Source: Chlorobiales bacterium Clorobi_01 (GTDB lineage: Bacteria; Bacteroidota; Chlorobiia; Chlorobiales; Chlorobiaceae). Taken from it: a DNA stretch of 64,000 nt. This document shows, piece after piece, positions 8,746 to 63,736 of the stretch (its first letter is position 1; every line of letters begins with the position of its first letter). The DNA is taken from contig LUZT01000006.1 in the NCBI GenBank assembly GCA_001602925.1, forward strand, positions 632,438-696,437, read 5' to 3'. Made by a program: the position numbers and the translations under genes. The notes below the pieces were generated by a model. That model worked only from the letters and a program-made list of their open reading frames with translations. It did no database searches and had not been told where the DNA came from.

Positions 8746-9723
8746 TCATCCCATTCTGATTTCCGAATAATCGCCGATGTTCAGCTCGTGGCCCATCGCC
8801 GATACGATGGCATTGTTGCCGACGATCGAACGGTCAAGCATGATGTCGCTGACCTGCGATTTGCGTCCGATGATGGAGTTCATGATAATGGAGTCCCTGA
8901 CGATCGCGTGTTCGGCGATTGTGGCGTTTGGACCGATGATGGAGTTCGTGACGGTGGCGCTGTCGGCAATGAATACCGGCGGGTTGATGATGCAGCCGGG
9001 GAGTGATTTTTGCCGGGTATCCCTCTGCAAGAGAACTTCGTTCGTTGAGAGAAGCGTTTCAGGTTTGCCGCAATCGTACCATCCCTGCACCGGGAAGGTT
9101 GAAAATGGTTCGCCGAGATCGATCATGTGCTGCAGGGCGTCGGTAAGCTGGAATTCGCCTTTGGTCCGGATGTCGTTGGCGATGATGTAATCAATGCTGT
9201 TGAAAAGCGTGCCTGCCCTGTGCAGAAAATAGAGCCCGACGATTGCCAGATTGCTCACCGGTTGCTCCGGCTTTTCCACGAGCCGCACGATCCTGTTGCC
9301 CTCGGTGACCACCACCCCGAAGCGTCTCGGATCTTCAACCTCTTTGACCCCGAGCGTCGAAACACTGCTGCCGAGTACCAGCTTCAGGTCGACATCAAAA
9401 ATGGTGTCTCCGAGGATGATGAAGAGTGGCTCTTCATCGAGCACATGCGGTCTGCACATATGGACCGCATGGGCGAGACCGAGCTGGTCGGCCTGGGTGA
9501 CAAAGGTCAGTTTGATAGAATAGTGTGAGGTGAGGTACTCCTCGATTTTGCCCCCGAGATAACCAACGATGATCACGGCCTCATCAATGCCCGATTCGAT
9601 GAGTTTGTCCATGATATGACCGATGATCGGCTTGCCGGCTACATTGAGCAGTACTTTCGGTTGGGAAAAGGTATGCGGACGAAGACGGCTTCCGACACCG
9701 GCAACGGGAATGATGGCTTTCAT
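8746..9723 (-). CDS. Sugar-phosphate nucleotidyltransferase (glucose-1-phosphate thymidylyltransferase long-form family)
   Basis: MKAIIPVAGVGSRLRPHT...PK motif, EKP, C-terminal left-handed beta-helix hexapeptide repeats. Confidence 0.9.
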   Translation of the reverse strand: MKAIIPVAGVGSRLRPHTFSQPKVLLNVAGKPIIGHIMDKLIESGIDEAVIIVGYLGGKIEEYLTSHYSIKLTFVTQADQLGLAHAVHMCRPHVLDEEPLFIILGDTIFDVDLKLVLGSSVSTLGVKEVEDPRRFGVVVTEGNRIVRLVEKPEQPVSNLAIVGLYFLHRAGTLFNSIDYIIANDIRTKGEFQLTDALQHMIDLGEPFSTFPVQGWYDCGKPETLLSTNEVLLQRDTRQKSLPGCIINPPVFIADSATVTNSIIGPNATIAEHAIVRDSIIMNSIIGRKSQVSDIMLDRSIVGNNAIVSAMGHELNIGDYSEIRMG

Positions 9724-10018
9724 GTCAGGGGTCGCTTTTGATTGACTGAAAATATGTGTATCAATTTACTTCAATTGCAGGAGATTATCATTATTCGGAA
9801 GTCGGTGAAAAAAACATCGTTCAGGTAATCGGAGAAATTGCGTTCTTGCAGGTGGTGCTGTGTTTGCGGGCTTTTGTGCGCTTAAAGATCATTGTGACAT
9901 CATGGTGAAACAGTCATGGAAAAAAGCTGAAATCTTGTATCTTTTGCACGGTTCTTTCCTATAACAATCGTTATAGGAGGAGTTGTTCATGTAAACGTTT
10001 TACTTCTTTCAGGCAATC

Positions 10019-10429
10019 ATGGCCAATGGAACGGTTAAAATATCGGAACAGTCAGGCGTGCTGCCAATTGCCGGTGACAAGATTGTGCTGATTACGGCCC
10101 GCGGTTCCGGGCGCTGGATCATCCCCAAAGGGTATATCGAGAAAGGCATGTCGCCCGCCGAATCTGCTGCGAAGGAGGCATGGGAGGAGGCTGGTATTAT
10201 CGGAAGCGTCCGGCATGAAGAGATCGGCACCTACTCATACCGCCGTCCGTCGGGCATCTTTTCGGTCAGGATTTATCCTCTCGAAGTTGAGTCCCTGCTT
10301 GAGCAGTGGGATGAGATGCATGTCCGTCAGCGTCGGCTGGTCACGCCATCGGAAGCCATAGAGATGATTTGTCTCAAGGAGCTGAGGAGTCTCGTAACTG
10401 ATTATCTGATAAACCGTTTCGATTTTTGA
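10019..10429 (+). CDS. NUDIX hydrolase (DIPP/Ap6A-hydrolase-like)
   Basis: Nudix box PKGYIEKGMSPAESAAKEAWEEAG; VLITARGSGRWIIPKG. Confidence 0.92.
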   Translation: MANGTVKISEQSGVLPIAGDKIVLITARGSGRWIIPKGYIEKGMSPAESAAKEAWEEAGIIGSVRHEEIGTYSYRRPSGIFSVRIYPLEVESLLEQWDEMHVRQRRLVTPSEAIEMICLKELRSLVTDYLINRFDF

Positions 10430-10535
10430 TCCACTGATCATTGCGCTGTTTGCTCTCGGTTTTTTGTGAAGGGTTTCTGAAAATTTTGTTTGGTGATTTC
10501 GGCTCAAGTCGTATATTATGAGCCTTCCGTTAAGA

Positions 10536-10611
10536 CGGGGCATGGCGCAGCTGGTAGCGTGCCTGCTTTGGGAGCAGGAGGTCCCGAGTTCGAGTCTCGG
10601 TGCCCCGACCA
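10536..10611 (+). tRNA. tRNA-Pro(TGG)
   Basis: Cloverleaf; anticodon arm CCTGC-TT-TGG-GA-GCAGG; T-loop GTTCGAGT; encoded CCA. Confidence 0.97.
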
Positions 10612-10633
10612 TGGAGAGCTGCGACAGGATTAT

Positions 10634-10706
<73 letters not shown>

Positions 10707-10732
10707 CAGGAAGAGGATTTTTCGCTTTTCAT

Positions 10733-10807
10733 GGTGATTGTAGCTCAGGTGGTTAGAGCGCCAGGTTGTGGCCCTGGAGGTCGGGGGTTCGAGTCCCCTC
10801 ATTCACC
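10733..10807 (+). tRNA. tRNA-His(GTG)
   Basis: Anticodon arm CCAGG-TT-GTG-GC-CCTGG; G-1 present. Confidence 0.97.
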
Positions 10808-10861
10808 CCGGTTCTGTAATGGGCTTCCGCAATTTAACGGGAAGCGTTTTTGGAATTGAAC

Positions 10862-10933
10862 GGCCCCATCGACTAGTGGTTAGGTCATCACCCTTTCAAG
10901 GTGGTAGCACGGGTTCGAATCCCGTTGGGGTCA
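10862..10933 (+). tRNA. tRNA-Glu(TTC)
   Basis: Anticodon arm TCACC-CT-TTC-AA-GGTGG; acceptor GGCCCCA/TGGGGTC. Confidence 0.97.
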
Positions 10934-11166
10934 CACCATAGCTCCGATAAACTTCGCGGTTTTGACGTGAGTTGAGTATATACGCTGGTTATCAAGCTCT
11001 GTGCTGTTGCAGGTTCAGAGCTTTTTTTGTTAGGTTGCGGCATCTCTGAACATTGCCGGTCATTCGATTGCGCGGCCTCGGCTGGCATGCTGGCGCATCG
11101 GCTCTGCATCGTTCCTGACGATTTTCCGAGATGCTTTTCATGAATGCATTGCACTAATACCCGCCC

Positions 11167-57755: not shown

Positions 57756-57974
57756 GGTTCTATCGAAAAATTGTTGAACGGTTTTGAACGGTAAATCTGC
57801 CAAAAAAACAACAGAGGGGCAAGAATCTTTTCGATGAGTAGTGGCTGAGGCTGGTGCTCATCGTATTGAATCGGCCATTTGTCCCAGATTTAGACGATAA
57901 ACATTCGAGTCTCTTGCATTGCGCAAGCGGGCAATAAAAAAAGCCGCCCTATACTGACTGGACGGCTTTTTTAG

Positions 57975-58047
<73 letters not shown>

Positions 58048-58305: not shown

Positions 58306-58578
58306 TCAATTTTGTGTGGCAGGCGGATCGTACTGCTTCAGGTCATTCGGATCGACGACACCTTCCTTGCCGCTCAGGTCGACAGGCGTGTCTGAATTGG
58401 TGTCGAATCCCTGGCTGGAGCCATACTTCGCACCTTCGTCGGTGGGTTCCCTGGTTGCGGCTTCGCTGTCTCTCGATGTGTCCCTCAATTGATCATACGC
58501 GCTTTCTGCATGCAGATTCGTTTGTGCGAGTGTTCCTGAAACTGCAAGAATCAGCAACATGCCGAATACTTTTTTCAT
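58306..58578 (-). CDS. Small secreted acidic hypothetical protein
   Basis: Signal-peptide-like MKKVFGMLLILAVSGTLA followed by a D/E/S/T-rich mature region. Confidence 0.7.
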   Translation of the reverse strand: MKKVFGMLLILAVSGTLAQTNLHAESAYDQLRDTSRDSEAATREPTDEGAKYGSSQGFDTNSDTPVDLSGKEGVVDPNDLKQYDPPATQN

Positions 58579-58823: not shown

Positions 58824-59843
58824 ATGAAGTACGCCGTTCAAAGAATTTCGAGGCTGATTTCTCTGCTCTTCGTTCTGACCTTTTTCCATGATACCGTGTC
58901 TGCGATTCCTTTGTCTCCAGGGCCACGTCAGCCCGGCGAGGTTATTCTTGAGGAAGTGGTGGCCGGGTCGGGTGGATTTGTTGTTCGCGTGGGCAGCAAC
59001 GGATGCACCAGCAAAAACTCGTTCGAGGTGCTGGTGAACAAAAAACCGGGCCTTACTGATCTCGCGCCGCACTACGAACTGACGATTGTCCGCAAGGTGC
59101 CAGATGAGTGCAAGGCGATTGTCGAGGATGGCACTGTGATTGCGTATGATCTGAAGCAGGATCTCGGCATCTCTGGTCACTACACCTATACCATTACCAA
59201 TCCCGTTTATTCGCCGCGCCCATACGCGGATACGAGTGATTACTATCTGCCTAATGCCTTGAAGGATGCGGTGCCTGATTTTCCCAAGGTTACAGAGGTG
59301 CGCCCCGAGCCATTCGAGAAGTACACTGCCAGGCCGGACTTTTTTTCCTGCCTCGTGCCTGTGGACTGGACGCGGAGTGCCGCCGATCCGGAAGGTGACG
59401 CAAAAGCCGGGATTTATCAGGTTCAGCTCACCAGAGACGGGCTTGCCAGGCCGGAGGATGGTGAAAAGTACTCTTTTCCGCGTCCACTCATCTATGTCGG
59501 CTACTATGCCCTCGGCAACCGTGAGGGAAAAACGTATGCAAACTATCTGGCCGATTACGACCGGCTGATGCGCAAGAACACGGGCAGCAAACAGTCATCG
59601 TACAGCAAACCTGTGAAGACGACGGTCGCTGGGCTTGAGGCGACTGTTACCGATTACGAGGTCTGGCAGGCGCTTCCGCGTGGCCCGCTGTTTACCACAA
59701 AGTACTGGCTGAAGGCTCGTTTCGTGGTTGTCAAAGCAAGGCAGGGATTTTATGTGCTGGCATTCAAAAGTCCAAAAGAGTTCTATAATCAGAGCTTCCC
59801 CACATTCCAGGCGGTGCTTGACTCCTTCGTTCCCAAACGGTAA
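58824..59843 (+). CDS. Secreted two-domain hypothetical protein (C-terminal PsbP/Mog1-like)
   Basis: Signal-like N-terminus; SNGCT...PDECKA domain; C-terminal FSCLVPVDW...YVLAFKS...FQAVLDSF pattern. Fold assignment by eye. Confidence 0.6.
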   Translation: MKYAVQRISRLISLLFVLTFFHDTVSAIPLSPGPRQPGEVILEEVVAGSGGFVVRVGSNGCTSKNSFEVLVNKKPGLTDLAPHYELTIVRKVPDECKAIVEDGTVIAYDLKQDLGISGHYTYTITNPVYSPRPYADTSDYYLPNALKDAVPDFPKVTEVRPEPFEKYTARPDFFSCLVPVDWTRSAADPEGDAKAGIYQVQLTRDGLARPEDGEKYSFPRPLIYVGYYALGNREGKTYANYLADYDRLMRKNTGSKQSSYSKPVKTTVAGLEATVTDYEVWQALPRGPLFTTKYWLKARFVVVKARQGFYVLAFKSPKEFYNQSFPTFQAVLDSFVPKR

Positions 59844-59855
59844 AACGACTTCGCC

Positions 59856-60233
59856 ATGCCGGATATCAGGATAAAACCGACGCGCTCCACGTTGACCATG
59901 ATGCGAATTGCGTCGTTTATCGTGGCGCTTGTCGGCGCGGGTATGATCGCGGGCGTTGTGAGCAACGGCCTGCTCGAAGAGGGGGGCGTGTTTGTCATCA
60001 TCTGGATCGCGGCCTGCGTTGCGATCATCGGCTTCGCGCTCTTCATGGCTTTTAGCCAAAAGGTGAGCCATGACGGGATCGTCAGCATCGAAGATGCGGG
60101 GGAGTCGCAATCCGCCTCTGATGCCCAAAGCGTGGAGGCTCGGCTGAAAACGCTTGACGGGCTCAAGCGTCAAAAGCTCATAAGTGACGAGGAGTACCGG
60201 AAGCAGCGGGAGAAGATCATTCAAAGCGTGTGA
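59856..60233 (+). CDS. Two-TM membrane protein with C-terminal SHOCT domain
   Basis: Two hydrophobic helices, then VEARLKTLDGLKRQKLISDEEYRKQREKII. Confidence 0.85.
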   Translation: MPDIRIKPTRSTLTMMRIASFIVALVGAGMIAGVVSNGLLEEGGVFVIIWIAACVAIIGFALFMAFSQKVSHDGIVSIEDAGESQSASDAQSVEARLKTLDGLKRQKLISDEEYRKQREKIIQSV

Positions 60234-60269
60234 TTTTGCTGACTTCGTCAATCAAACAAAGGAGTGGGA

Positions 60270-60665
60270 ATGAACAATCAGATCGACAGGCCGGAAGGGG
60301 AGCTTCGTTCCAGATTGGCCAGAGGCGAGCGGTTGCTTGACATCGGGCAGAAGCTTGGCATCGCGATTCCGGCGGGGCTGCTGCTTTTCTGCGGCGTGAA
60401 CGCTTCGGCGATGACTCGCGATGCTGTGAAAATATCCTTTTCGCCGGACGCCGCGCGCGAGAACGAGGTGGCCCGGCATCTCACGGAGATTACGAACAAT
60501 CCGGGCGGCGTGCGGCTTGCCGACCAGGGCAATCCACTGCACGAAAACACCCATGTCGATACCAACAGTCCCGATGTGCATAGTGATTATTCGGACAGCG
60601 GCAAGCACACCAACTCGCATGGTAACGTGCATACCAATACACACGGCGACGTGAATCGCTACTGA
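60270..60665 (+). CDS. Putative RiPP precursor with His/Tyr-X-Asp/Asn repeats
   Basis: AAGGAG SD 5 nt before the ATG; 131 aa; C-terminus HENTHVDTNSPDVHSDYSDSGKHTNSHGNVHTNTHGDVNRY; stop 3 nt before the rSAM gene. Confidence 0.8.
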   Translation: MNNQIDRPEGELRSRLARGERLLDIGQKLGIAIPAGLLLFCGVNASAMTRDAVKISFSPDAARENEVARHLTEITNNPGGVRLADQGNPLHENTHVDTNSPDVHSDYSDSGKHTNSHGNVHTNTHGDVNRY

Positions 60666-60668
60666 ACG

Positions 60669-61862
60669 ATGCCCGGTATGAAGACCAGAGAGGAGTTTCT
60701 CGAAAAACTCGCTCAGGCGGGCAAGCTGATCCTGATTTTTCAACTGACCGATCAGTGTGTGCTTTCGTGCCGGTATTGCTTCGCGAAAGGCTCCCATCCA
60801 TCCGGAGGCCTTCGCATTGCCGATGACCTGCTCGAAGCGGCCATCCGGAGCGCGTTCGATACGCGCCACCGTGAAGTCTCCTTCGAGTGGACGGGAGGAG
60901 AGCCGTTTTTCGCAGGCATCGATTTTTATCGCAAGGTCGATCGCCTCCAGAAAAAGTACGCCACCAAGCCCTACGCGAATACCATTCAGACGAGTGGCTA
61001 TGTGCATGACCGGGAGTTGATCGCCTGGCTTGCCGGGCACGGTTTTCACATCTCCTCGACCATCGACGGCCCGCCGGAACTGCATGATTTCCAGCGCCCT
61101 GCGAACGGCGGGGGCCCGTCGCTCGCCACGGTGCTCGCAACGCGCGAAACGATCATCGAGCATCAGGGGCACTGTGGCTGCATCTGCACGGTCACGCGGA
61201 ACAGTCTCGGCAAGGAGGGGGCGATTCTTGATTACTACCGTTCGCTCGGCATTGAAGCCTTTCACAGCAATCCGTATCACTATTTTTCCGAAAATCTTGT
61301 TGGCGACGAAAGTCTCGCGCTCGATGCTGACGGCTACGCCGCGTATTTCATCGCCCAGTTCAACGCCTGGTTCGAGGGCGGGCGCAAGCTCCCGATGCCC
61401 GGCACGCTCAACTACATTCTGCGCTCGCTGGCTGCAGGAGCCGGGTTGAAGCAGTCGGTCTGCACCTTCGGCGGGCGCTGCCTGACCAATTTTCTGGCCA
61501 TCACGCCCGATGGCGATGCGTGGCTTTGCCCCAAGTTCGCGGGTTTCGATGAGATGCGTCTCGGCAACGTTGGCAAGATGGCTATCACCGACATCCTTTC
61601 TGACGCCAATCCCGCCATGGCGCGCCTCATCGACGAGCGCCTTGAGGCGATGCACACCTGCGAAGCGGATGAGTGCCGCTTCCAGTACCTCTGCAACGCG
61701 GGGTGTCCCTACTACTCTTTCATCGCCAGCGGAGGCCGGAACATCGCCGCGAAGGATTCCCTTTGCACAGGCAAGCAGCTGCTCTTCGAATACCTCGAAT
61801 CGGTGGTCGAACTGATCGATCCCGCCCAGCTTTCCGAACCTAGACCCCTCGAACATGCGTAA
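60669..61862 (+). CDS. Radical SAM / SPASM domain peptide maturase
   Basis: CVLSCRYC (CxxxCxxC), WTGGEP, SPASM cysteines Cx5Cx15C and Cx4Cx5Cx3Cx19C. Confidence 0.93.
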   Translation: MPGMKTREEFLEKLAQAGKLILIFQLTDQCVLSCRYCFAKGSHPSGGLRIADDLLEAAIRSAFDTRHREVSFEWTGGEPFFAGIDFYRKVDRLQKKYATKPYANTIQTSGYVHDRELIAWLAGHGFHISSTIDGPPELHDFQRPANGGGPSLATVLATRETIIEHQGHCGCICTVTRNSLGKEGAILDYYRSLGIEAFHSNPYHYFSENLVGDESLALDADGYAAYFIAQFNAWFEGGRKLPMPGTLNYILRSLAAGAGLKQSVCTFGGRCLTNFLAITPDGDAWLCPKFAGFDEMRLGNVGKMAITDILSDANPAMARLIDERLEAMHTCEADECRFQYLCNAGCPYYSFIASGGRNIAAKDSLCTGKQLLFEYLESVVELIDPAQLSEPRPLEHA

Positions 61863-62658
61863 CATTATCCGTCGCGCGGAGGCTGTCCGCCATCTTTTCG
61901 TCGTCGCGTTGCTCGCTCTGCTTCTTCTGCCCGTCGATGTCCCGGCCCGCATGGCCGAACGCATGGCTGATCCGGTTGGCAAGACCGACTCCTATTTTTC
62001 CGATAACGGAGTATGGGAAGTTGCGATCACCTACGGGAACCTCTTCCACTCGTGGAGCCTGAAGAAAAACGGGCAGGAGCTCTGGCATCACGCACTCATG
62101 GACGAACCCGGCAGCGCGGCGGTTTCGGACAACGGCGAGGTGATCACGTTGCCGCTCTGGGGCTGGCGCGACGAGGGTGGTTCGAGCGGGATCGCCGTGT
62201 ACAACGGTCAGGGTGAACCGGTTCGGGAGATCATGTTCCGAAACGCGGACGGCAGTGAGAGCCTGCGCTGGGTGCGCCGGATAGCGATTGCTCCCGAAGG
62301 CTCGTGCATCGCCATCGGCGAGAACAGGCGGGAGGCTGCGCTGGTAACGATGTTCGATGTAACCAGTGGCAACATTGTCTGGGAAACGAATGCCGGTTTG
62401 CCGGAGATTGATGATGTCAGGGTGAGCGCCAAGGGTGAATATACGCTTGCCGCCACTTCAAAGTATGGCACCGGCAATATGGAGTTTCTGCTCTTCGACA
62501 AGCATGGAACAGCGATATGGAGCGAAAAGCGATCTGGAAATCTCTCGTTGGATGTAAAAATGTATGTCAGATTTCTTGCCGACGGCAAAGGTTTTGAGAT
62601 ATACGATCTGAAGTCCAAATCCTGGATGAAACGGCGATTTCCCGCTCAGAAACATTGA
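61855..62658 (+). CDS. Secreted beta-propeller-like hypothetical protein
   Basis: Hydrophobic N-terminal signal; blade-like repeats (AAVSDNGE, IAIAPEGS, VRVSAKGE, VRFLADGK); start overlaps the rSAM stop. Confidence 0.6.
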   Translation: MRNIIRRAEAVRHLFVVALLALLLLPVDVPARMAERMADPVGKTDSYFSDNGVWEVAITYGNLFHSWSLKKNGQELWHHALMDEPGSAAVSDNGEVITLPLWGWRDEGGSSGIAVYNGQGEPVREIMFRNADGSESLRWVRRIAIAPEGSCIAIGENRREAALVTMFDVTSGNIVWETNAGLPEIDDVRVSAKGEYTLAATSKYGTGNMEFLLFDKHGTAIWSEKRSGNLSLDVKMYVRFLADGKGFEIYDLKSKSWMKRRFPAQKH

Positions 62659-62821: not shown

Positions 62822-63736
62822 ATGAGCGATCAGGTTTCAACTGCGGCGCGCGATCATGAGTGGTTTGACTATTACCAGCGCTTCAGCTATTTCTCTCCGG
62901 AATCGGTGCGTGATGGTTGTCATCCCAGAATCCTGGAGCATCCACAATCGCCCCAGAAGGCGATTGTTCTCGTTCATGGTCTTTCCGATTCTCCTTACTT
63001 CATGACGGCGATCGGTGACTATTTTTTCAATCGCCTCGGTTACAATGTCTACATGCCATTGCTGCACTGCCACGGTTTGAGAGAGCCAAACGGTATGGAG
63101 GGAGTCGAACTCGAAGAGTGGAAGTCGAATGTCAGCTTTGCCATCAGCACGGCGGCGCGGAAGTCGAGCGAGGTTTCAATCGGCGGGCTGTCCACCGGCG
63201 GAACGCTGGGCTTGTACATGGCAGCGATCAATCCGAAAATCCGGGGCACACTCTATCTCTTCTCGGCGGCACTCGATCTGGCGGGCGGCCCGTTTGGCCT
63301 CGTCGGAGAGCTGAAAGAGAAGCTGCTGCTGACCTTTCTGACTGATCTCCTCGATTTTAACACTCCTTTGATCGGAGAGAATCCCTACCGGTACAGCTCG
63401 GTTGACATGGATGGCGCGGTGCAACTTGCCCGGCTCATCAAGGAGACCGACATTATCATCGACCTGTTCGACTCACGATTTCCCTTTTCTGAAAAAGTGT
63501 TTGCGGCGCACTCCGAATCCGACACTACCGCCGATATTGCCGGCATCGAAGCATTGCAGAATATCTCTGATCAAGCGCGATTCAACTTTTTTAGAATTCC
63601 CAAAAATCTCTCCGTGCCACACGCGAGCGTCGTGCTCGACATGCCGATTGAGCACGATGGCAAAGAGCTGGAACCCCGGAACCCGCTGTTCCCTGAAATG
63701 ATGCAGGCAATAGCAGCTTTTGAAACAATCGGATAA
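62822..63736 (+). CDS. Alpha/beta hydrolase (carboxylesterase-like)
   Basis: VLVHGLSDSP, nucleophile elbow GLSTGG, SDTTAD, VPH catalytic-triad candidates. Confidence 0.9.
   Translation: MSDQVSTAARDHEWFDYYQRFSYFSPESVRDGCHPRILEHPQSPQKAIVLVHGLSDSPYFMTAIGDYFFNRLGYNVYMPLLHCHGLREPNGMEGVELEEWKSNVSFAISTAARKSSEVSIGGLSTGGTLGLYMAAINPKIRGTLYLFSAALDLAGGPFGLVGELKEKLLLTFLTDLLDFNTPLIGENPYRYSSVDMDGAVQLARLIKETDIIIDLFDSRFPFSEKVFAAHSESDTTADIAGIEALQNISDQARFNFFRIPKNLSVPHASVVLDMPIEHDGKELEPRNPLFPEMMQAIAAFETIG

Follow-up and report, generated by a model that had tools for sequence, protein, structure and literature searches.

A two-gene cassette of a His-repeat precursor and a radical SAM/SPASM enzyme in Chlorobiales and other phyla, with predicted crosslinking before Sec export

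Radical S-adenosylmethionine (SAM) enzymes that act on RiPPs (peptides made by the ribosome and modified after translation) include HaaB, HtkB and YhhB, which link His-C2 to the Cβ of residue i+2 (PMC11499958, PMC11002830), XncB and OscB, which join Trp or Phe to Asn Cβ, OscB also to Asp, YxdB, which joins Tyr to Asp Cβ, and the dynobactin enzyme, which forms one link from Trp to Asn-Cβ and another, across three residues, from Tyr-Cβ to an imidazole nitrogen of His (PMC11002830). The effector of the HXS system, a protein with a signal peptide and His-x-Ser repeats, undergoes maturation by radical SAM enzymes and exerts an antiphage action in the periplasm (PMC13128918), and bufferins are made from long RiPP precursors with a Sec signal and no dedicated exporter, as small periplasmic proteins that bind metal, namely copper (PMC11626156). 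Here we analysed five adjoining genes (g1-g5) in a 64,000-nucleotide stretch of contig LUZT01000006.1 of Chlorobiales bacterium Clorobi_01 (the window), among them a His-repeat precursor gene, g3, and the radical SAM/SPASM gene that follows it, g4. As in the triceptide systems, a radical SAM/SPASM enzyme adjoins a precursor with repeated aromatic-X-X triads, and g3 resembles the HXS effector in its repeated His-x-small-polar triads and in having a predicted signal peptide, a predicted radical SAM maturation and a predicted place of action in the periplasm.

We favour, at a rough probability of 0.55, a reading in which g3+g4, a two-gene cassette, and not the five-gene block, makes up the functional unit, and in which g3 would be crosslinked between His and Cβ in the cytoplasm and then exported by Sec to the periplasm. 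In the cytoplasm, g4 would recognise the NEV-containing region of g3, abstract a hydrogen from the Cβ of Asn or Asp and join that Cβ to the imidazole ring of the His that stands two residues upstream, at each triad, and the resulting link would be a three-residue, triceptide-type crosslink. The modified g3 would then, as its sequence features suggest, leave by the general Sec pathway, with signal peptidase I removing the signal peptide, and the periplasmic product might, more speculatively, be a rigid array of imidazole and carboxylate or amide groups that binds metal ions. Export of this kind has precedents in the bufferins (PMC11626156) and in the HXS effector (PMC13128918). The five open reading frames (ORFs) run on the forward strand from 58824 to 62658, with spacers of 12, 36 and 3 nucleotides and an overlap of 8 nucleotides between g4 and g5, an arrangement that the initial annotation of this DNA had described and that the ORF list confirms. 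The genes and the elements of g3 are as follows.

58824-59843, + strand: g1, 339 amino acids, secreted two-domain protein
59856-60233, + strand: g2, 125 amino acids, small membrane protein
60270-60665, + strand: g3, 131 amino acids, His-repeat precursor
60270-60410, + strand: predicted signal peptide of g3, residues 1-47, with a charged N-region, the hydrophobic stretch LGIAIPAGLLLF and a predicted cleavage between ASA and MT (heuristic scan)
60459-60467, + strand: NEV motif of g3, residues 64-66, in which N65 is invariant in an alignment of 18 precursors
60540-60650, + strand: His-triad core of g3, residues 91-127, with HEN, HVD, HSD, HTN, HGN, HTN and HGD
60669-61862, + strand: g4, 397 amino acids, radical SAM/SPASM maturase
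61855-62658, + strand: g5, 267 amino acids, secreted beta-propeller protein, accessory

The start of g1 at the ATG at 58824 agrees with the length of its homologues (329-340 amino acids), and the start ATG of g3 is preceded by AAAGGAG.

In the precursor g3, a predicted Sec-type signal peptide leads into a linker that bears the NEV motif and then into seven His-x-Asn/Asp triads, which hold seven of the eight His residues of g3. The same order was found in the alignment of 18 precursors, in which a K/R-rich N-terminus is followed by a hydrophobic core of the form LGIxIPAxLL, an AxA-type site, a variable spacer, the NEV motif and a His-rich core. Within the hydrophobic core L29, G30 and P34 are invariant, and the AxA-type site lies 5-10 residues after it in 18/18 sequences. 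All 18 also show the features scored in our signal-peptide scan (a positive N-region, a 12-residue window with a Kyte-Doolittle value of 1.9-2.7, and an AxA-type site), the calls throughout being those of a home-made heuristic and not of SignalP. A predicted Sec-type signal peptide on the precursor itself would account best for the missing dedicated exporter and leader protease.

Family precursors are about 115-160 amino acids long and carry 4-14 His-[Thr/Ser]-[Asn/Asp] triads each. Asn or Asp stands at +2 of 146 of the 160 His residues of their cores and Thr or Ser at +1 of 112; in 30% of triads +1 is taken by Gly, Val, Ala, Glu or some other amino acid, and the His and the Asn/Asp are near-invariant. 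In the C-terminal halves, Asn or Asp follows at +2 after 93% of His residues, compared with 8-20% after other residues (binomial p about 6e-74). Two aligned triads have Tyr in place of His (Y-V-D and Y-T-D), as would be expected if that position must be aromatic. From the NEV motif onward, the regions are mostly acidic and hold 0 or 2 Cys residues in 17 of the 18 precursors; the mature part of g3 has none, and exactly two conserved Cys are found in the mature part of the longer Bacteroidales forms and of the Elusimicrobiales-type forms, which would fit a disulfide formed after export in an oxidising compartment. The NEV motif is a candidate recognition element for the maturase, because it is kept where the hydrophobic part is lost. 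In a cultured relative with about 92-95% DNA identity (organism A, represented by assembled contigs of true transcriptome runs), 131 nucleotides of the core DNA at 60503-60635 are replaced by 131 different nucleotides, with the flanking parts of g3 and g4 92-95% identical, and the His-triad core evolves faster than the remainder of g3.

When g3 was compared with NCBIfam, no model matched at E up to 0.1, and so no HxsA model did, if one is in that library. With g3 as the sole query, HMMER gave 11 matches in all among 1.84 billion representatives. One of them, the 4271-residue protein P0212, was set aside as an artefact of 16 weak repeats that are ~30% identical to the linker region. A lipoprotein assignment for g3 was also rejected, the Cys of LLLFCG being unconserved and the residues before it forming no lipobox. 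The two-gene family has no Pfam or NCBIfam entry and was not found in the literature searched; a term search of a paper on RiPP mining in Bacteroidales showed no mention of it.

The maturase g4 has the only firm family assignment in the block, namely radical SAM/SPASM by Pfam and NCBIfam profile searches (Radical_SAM, 42.3 bits against a cutoff of 29.5; SPASM, 26.1 against 21.5; TIGR04085, 39.7 against 27). The CX3CX2C cysteines C30, C34 and C37 and the SAM-binding GGE at G76-G77-E78 are invariant in 18 homologues, as are all the SPASM cysteines (C265, C271, C287, C331, C336, C342, C346 and C366). Because the CX3CX2C motif at residues 30-37 leaves no space for it, g4 lacks an N-terminal RiPP recognition element (RRE). 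The top NCBIfam match was the anaerobic sulfatase maturase (anSME) model TIGR03942, with 159.9 bits against a cutoff of 349.45, and the second-best, nearly full length, was the dynobactin maturase DynA (NF041298, rSAM_mat_DynA), with 148.6 bits against 450; TIGR04083 (127 bits) and DarW (109 bits) also matched far below their curated cutoffs, and HxsB reached 87.1 against 370. Among solved structures only anSME and CteB were related, the best being anSME 4k36 at E 2e-25. Judged by these profile and structure matches, g4 belongs to the anSME-like SPASM group, without being assigned to any family in it.

A protein search with g4 returned about 129 clusters, with identities of 85-90% in Chlorobaculum/Chlorobiales assemblies, ~50-55% in many Bacteroidales (Alistipes, Prevotellaceae, Rikenellaceae, Tannerella, Paludibacter) and about 39% in a Deltaproteobacteria assembly. 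The family is found in green sulfur bacteria and, within gut, rumen and other metagenomes, in Alistipes, Prevotella, Rikenellaceae and Tannerella. The gene immediately upstream of the radical SAM gene is g3-like in 16 of the 20 loci taken from a scan of one genome per species (all from metagenome-derived assemblies), and likewise in L021, L025, L028, L029 and the window; the three most distant radical SAM loci, L018-L020, showed no such precursor. The flanking genes g1, g2 and g5 were found beside the pair solely in Chlorobiales, namely at L001, L002, L021 (Chlorobaculum sp. MV4-Y) and L025 (C. limnaeum). All five genes stand in identical order in L002, L021 and L025, and L001 is consistent with it, its g1 being cut by the contig end. 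The pair stands alone, without g1, g2 or g5, in 15 loci outside Chlorobaculum-like genomes, in Bacteroidales, Elusimicrobiales and others (L003-L007, L009-L017 and L029; L007 and L008 share one precursor and were counted once), and L028 also bears the pair. An all-against-all BLAST of neighbour genes revealed no shared neighbour, and when the 100 ORFs that lie no more than three genes away from the radical SAM homologue in 18 non-Chlorobaculum loci were scanned with Pfam, 128 families came up, none of them recurrent across loci (examples are SRP54, PheT, SpoU, TetR, PIN, Zeta toxin, AbiEi and one U32 peptidase). No ATP-binding cassette (ABC) exporter, peptidase-containing exporter of the PCAT type or other peptidase recurs among those 100 ORFs.

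The initial annotation had regarded the secreted and membrane proteins on either side as partners of the RiPP pair, and this is not supported, since their co-occurrence with the pair is confined to Chlorobaculum-like genomes and fails in the 15 loci. Two observations, absence of co-occurrence in other genomes and absence of co-transcription, had been named as speaking against such a partnership; the first is what the neighbourhood analysis across phyla found, in that the flanks do not accompany precursor-radical SAM homologues elsewhere. Three further features enter into the analysis of these flanks and their surroundings.

58306-58578, - strand: sm90, 90 amino acids, small secreted protein, divergent from g1
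62822-63736, + strand: alpha/beta hydrolase, 304 amino acids, no signal peptide, weak Hydrolase_4/S33 match
57974-58047, - strand: tRNA-Met, ~260 nucleotides from sm90 and 780 nucleotides upstream of g1

Taken one by one, the flanking proteins agree with their first description. The heuristic scan found signal-peptide-like N-termini on g1, g3, g5 and sm90 and none on g4 or the downstream hydrolase. Behind this N-terminus, g1 has a beta domain with conserved Cys61 and Cys96, a disordered linker and a PsbP/Mog1/DcrB-like C-terminal domain; its AlphaFold model, made with an alignment of homologues as input, has a mean predicted local distance difference test (pLDDT) score of 78 and two domains, in keeping with the secreted two-domain protein that had been proposed, and the top Foldseek matches were PsbP 2xb3 and 9grx (E about 1e-6), with only a weak PsbP match in the profile search. 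The g2 protein, described earlier as a SHOCT membrane protein, indeed has two hydrophobic segments and a weakly SHOCT-like C-terminus (18 bits, below the 27-bit cutoff), and was met solely alongside the Chlorobaculum version of the cassette. The description of g5 as a secreted, beta-propeller-like protein was borne out by the signal peptide, a weak PQQ_2/BamB profile match and a confident all-beta propeller model from AlphaFold, likewise made with an alignment of homologues (pLDDT 88), that Foldseek placed with WD40-type propellers at a probability of 1.0. The naming of g3 as a His-repeat precursor and of g4 as a radical SAM protein likewise holds, given 7/8 His residues in H-x-N/D triads and the radical SAM/SPASM profiles. 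No family match was found for sm90.

Homologues of the flanking proteins also occur apart from the pair. Those of g1 lie without a nearby radical SAM gene in Geobacteraceae (L022) and in L023/L024, and those of g5 without one in L026 and in the Omnitrophica assembly L027. In L026 (5620-5916) a homologue of sm90 adjoins, in divergent orientation, the g5 homologue, and the N-domain of g1 is a separate protein of 164 amino acids clustered with them, again with no radical SAM gene there. Because sm90, the g1 N-domain and g5 cluster in this way, the three may form a co-occurring secreted-protein set of their own, apart from the RiPP cassette. To judge from gene content, the cassette and g2 sit in Chlorobaculum between the separate secreted-protein genes sm90, g1 and g5, in an association that is lineage-specific and dispensable.

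Natural loss variants bear on the same point. L023/L024 belong to a Chlorobi relative in which the synteny around the locus is unchanged; sm90 is kept and g1 is intact, g2, g3, g5 and the hydrolase are gone, and what is left of g4, directly after g1, is a frameshifted remnant of its final ~75 codons (L024 7100-7316, L023 7094-7310). In L030/L031, two contigs from two metagenome samples, window position 59497 is joined to 62412, so that 59498-62411 (2.9 kb) is deleted and an in-frame g1::g5 chimera results (L030 1607-2365 and L031 261-1019, proteins P0164/P0165, with ...PLMYV running into DVRVSAKGEY... at the junction); this deletion allele also lacks sm90 and the start of g1. Organism A lacks g5. 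The block is therefore dispensable and decays piecemeal.

Transcription was followed in organism A. Its transcript contigs cover g1-g2-g3 (depth 308) and g3-g4 (depth 291), and a single 3156-nucleotide contig from a metatranscriptome covers g1 through g4; the depth of the contigs varies from segment to segment, as it should if they derive from RNA. In a contig of run X25, position 61929 is joined to 62725, with 795 nucleotides skipped and 8 bases shared at the junction, and the 3' part of g4 runs straight into the hydrolase on one contig, which shows that g5 is missing from organism A. With contigs crossing every junction, co-transcription of g1-g4 in this close relative is supported. Two metagenomic runs labelled RNA-Seq, X7 and X11, were rejected as evidence of transcription, their depth being flat at ~5 over genes and spacers alike. 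The operon of the initial annotation is thus supported for g1-g4 in that relative, where they share single transcript contigs, and could not be carried over to g5, which the relative does not have. The block was confirmed to hold no ABC/PCAT exporter or recognisable peptidase when g1-g5 were searched with Pfam, NCBIfam and PADLOC, and an envelope product, as had been proposed in preference to a leader-cleaved, PCAT-exported antibiotic, is probable on the strength of the predicted Sec-type signal peptide of the precursor. Overall, the earlier interpretation is partly supported, in that envelope targeting, the missing exporter and protease, and co-transcription stand and the dedicated periplasmic partners do not.

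Around the block, the hydrolase gene starts 163 nucleotides 3' of g5, and no terminator-like site was seen between them; its weak match is to the S33 aminopeptidase family, a caveat to the lack of a peptidase in the block. It is kept in L001, L002, L025 and L030, and a transposase-type gene takes its place in L021. A second caveat is a Zn_peptidase_2 gene upstream on the opposite strand, which remains where the cassette is lost. The DNA downstream of tRNA-Met varies between relatives, L023/L024 having extra glyoxalase and WG_beta_rep genes there, and the stretch by tRNA-Met behaves as a variable region. The base composition of the block region showed nothing unusual, and a promoter and terminator scan, which was not built for Chlorobi promoters, gave neither a forward-strand promoter-like site nor any convincing intergenic terminator. 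PADLOC returned nothing on the block beyond weak viperin-core matches to g4. A link to the upstream NiFe-hydrogenase genes was considered and rejected, as the same synteny persists in genomes without the cassette.

Elsewhere, in L029 (247-11146), the pair follows, on the same strand, a heavy-metal P-type ATPase with an HMA domain and a multihaem cytochrome; downstream come HigB/antitoxin genes and then a mer operon (MerR, MerT, HMA/MerP, MerF), which breaks off just after the beginning of a pyridine-nucleotide-disulfide reductase that is probably MerA. In L028 the pair is followed downstream by a PG_binding_1 protein and two TIR-domain genes (9356-11048).

Several observations weigh against cytoplasmic crosslinking followed by Sec export, or against setting the pair apart from its flanks. 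The crosslink, the atoms joined and the target residues are read from motif conservation and by analogy, and g4 lies below the curated cutoff of every characterised family, by far, including the cyclophane synthases GrrM/OscB (66.5, cutoff 310), YhhB (53.3, cutoff 445) and AmcB (74.6, cutoff 425). The LGIxIPAxLL segment is unusually conserved for a signal peptide and could be, or could also be, an enzyme recognition element; the precursor of L028 (4610-4906) has a very basic N-terminus and lacks the hydrophobic segment, with NEV and triads kept, and that of P0216 has a degenerate hydrophobic core. The authors of the bufferin study noted that peptides which have been macrocyclised are possibly poor substrates for Sec (PMC11626156). 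The tight spacing, the overlap of g4 and g5 and the co-transcription in Chlorobaculum are compatible with a local link to g1, g2 or g5. As to function, metal binding is our leading guess, suggested by the acidic core rich in His, Asp and Asn, and L029 is the only metal-related context among the loci.

Four other explanations have to be set against this evidence. If the five genes made up one dedicated system, it would fall to g1, g5 and g2 to receive the crosslinked His-rich product in the envelope, to hold it or to assemble it, and one would expect what is seen in Chlorobaculum-like genomes, namely spacers of 12, 36 and 3 nucleotides with an 8-nucleotide overlap, conserved order in L002, L021 and L025 (with L001 fitting save for its cut g1), single transcript contigs carrying g1-g4, signal-peptide-like N-termini on g1, g3 and g5, and membrane-spanning segments in g2. 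We nevertheless consider this improbable, as 15 pair-bearing loci outside those genomes have no g1, g2 or g5 and no recurrent neighbour Pfam family, g1 and g5 homologues are found without the pair, the relative that transcribes g1-g4 has no g5, an intact g1 survives deletion of g2-g5, and L026 groups sm90, the g1 N-domain and g5 without any radical SAM gene. A different chemistry is unlikely, if slightly less so: g4 may form no His-Cβ crosslinks at all and may oxidise a side chain in the manner of anSME (for example the Thr or Ser at +1), epimerise or otherwise modify g3, leaving the triads as metal-binding or structural repeats. The best NCBIfam and PDB matches of g4 are to the anaerobic sulfatase maturase (160 bits; 4k36, E 2e-25), and +1 is Thr or Ser in 70% of triads. 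Anaerobic sulfatase maturases work in the cytoplasm on signal-peptide proteins that are modified before export, which also counts for it. Yet the other 30% of triads have a different residue at +1 while His and Asn/Asp are near-invariant, the score of 160 against 349 is under half the anSME cutoff with the dynobactin maturase scoring nearly as high, and a sulfatase-type C/S-x-P-x-R motif is not visible in g3.

An envelope defence module like HXS, in which a periplasmic His-repeat protein matured by radical SAM chemistry hinders the entry of phage genomes, would fit the patchy and often lost cassette and its place in regions that vary (beside tRNA-Met in the window, near TIR/ThsB genes in L028, near HigBA and the mer island in L029), the PIN, Zeta-toxin and AbiEi genes among the neighbours, and the parallel with the HXS effector, itself a periplasmic, radical SAM-matured protein with a signal peptide and His-x-Ser repeats (PMC13128918). 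All the defining features of HXS except the signal peptide fail here, however: there is one radical SAM enzyme and not two, no HxsD, no peptidoglycan-binding domain, an HxsB score of 87 against 370, no NCBIfam model matching g3 (E up to 0.1), only weak viperin-core matches of g4 in PADLOC, and mostly acidic regions from NEV onward, unlike the basic, DNA-binding HxsA repeats; we hold this to be very unlikely. It is also doubtful that the conserved hydrophobic segment is an enzyme-recognised leader and not a signal peptide, with a product that remains cytoplasmic or depends on unlinked genes for its processing and export. Such a leader would explain why LGIxIPAxLL is conserved across phyla far beyond usual signal-peptide cores, and the L028 precursor, which keeps NEV and triads without the segment, and the degenerate segment of P0216 have been counted in its favour. 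The segment is nevertheless N-terminal, follows a positive stretch and has an AxA-type site 5-10 residues on in 18/18 aligned precursors, the paired Cys of the mature parts suggest an oxidising compartment, and NEV is what persists when the hydrophobic part is lost, which points to NEV as the recognition element.

If the two-gene reading, with crosslinking before Sec export, is true, His-[Thr/Ser]-[Asn/Asp] would be a new substrate motif for radical SAM crosslinking, with up to 14 copies per protein, the general Sec pathway would be a new delivery route for radical SAM crosslinked products, and a minimal two-gene module would suffice for a modified periplasmic protein. For genome mining, the locus illustrates that tight spacing and co-transcription can mislead on cluster borders, comparative genomics having here split a mobile pair from resident neighbours, and that a signal peptide on the precursor can account for a missing exporter and protease. 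Going further, and only tentatively, with the odds somewhat against us, we propose that g3/g4 represent an undescribed family in several phyla, made up of small Sec-exported proteins whose many His-x-Asn/Asp triads would be crosslinked before export by a stand-alone radical SAM enzyme. Such a family would be the radical SAM counterpart of bufferins or HxsA, and would equip anaerobes, among them common gut Bacteroidales, with a rigid poly-imidazole array in the periplasm that would serve metal handling or form a barrier in the envelope.

The comparison with described systems shows how far this proposal departs from each of them. In triceptides His is an established ring donor, with Asn and Asp among the documented Cβ partners (PMC11499958, PMC11002830); no triad of the form His-[Thr/Ser]-[Asn/Asp] came up in the triceptide literature searched. 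The pair differs from triceptide systems in that g4 scores far under the cutoff of each of the three cyclophane-synthase models it matched, and in that g3 is protein-sized, has a predicted Sec-type signal peptide, belongs to a family with up to 14 triads and has no linked protease or transporter, its crosslink being predicted. The dynobactin maturase, considered with DarE/DarW, is akin to g4 as its second-best profile match and as an enzyme that attacks Asn-Cβ, but the dynobactin precursor yields a short antibiotic that targets BamA, with one copy per ring and not a repeat protein, and occurs in different taxa. With anSME (PDB 4k36-4k39), its best profile and structure match, g4 shares an architecture without an RRE and with a full SPASM domain, whereas g3 is no sulfatase and conserves His and Asn/Asp, not the Cys or Ser of C/S-x-P-x-R. 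HXS has two radical SAM enzymes (HxsB and HxsC) plus HxsD, a peptidoglycan-binding domain and basic His-x-Ser repeats, and is found almost exclusively in Pseudomonadota; the present locus has a single radical SAM enzyme, no HxsD-like match in g1-g5, no peptidoglycan-binding domain and acidic triads with Asn or Asp at +2 in 91%, and the hosts are Bacteroidales, Chlorobi and Elusimicrobiales. Bufferins, finally, are modified on Cys by an MNIO (DUF692) enzyme with a DUF2063 partner, neither of which had a Pfam match in g1-g5, whereas the cassette pairs a radical SAM enzyme with a precursor in which His and Asn/Asp are the conserved residues.

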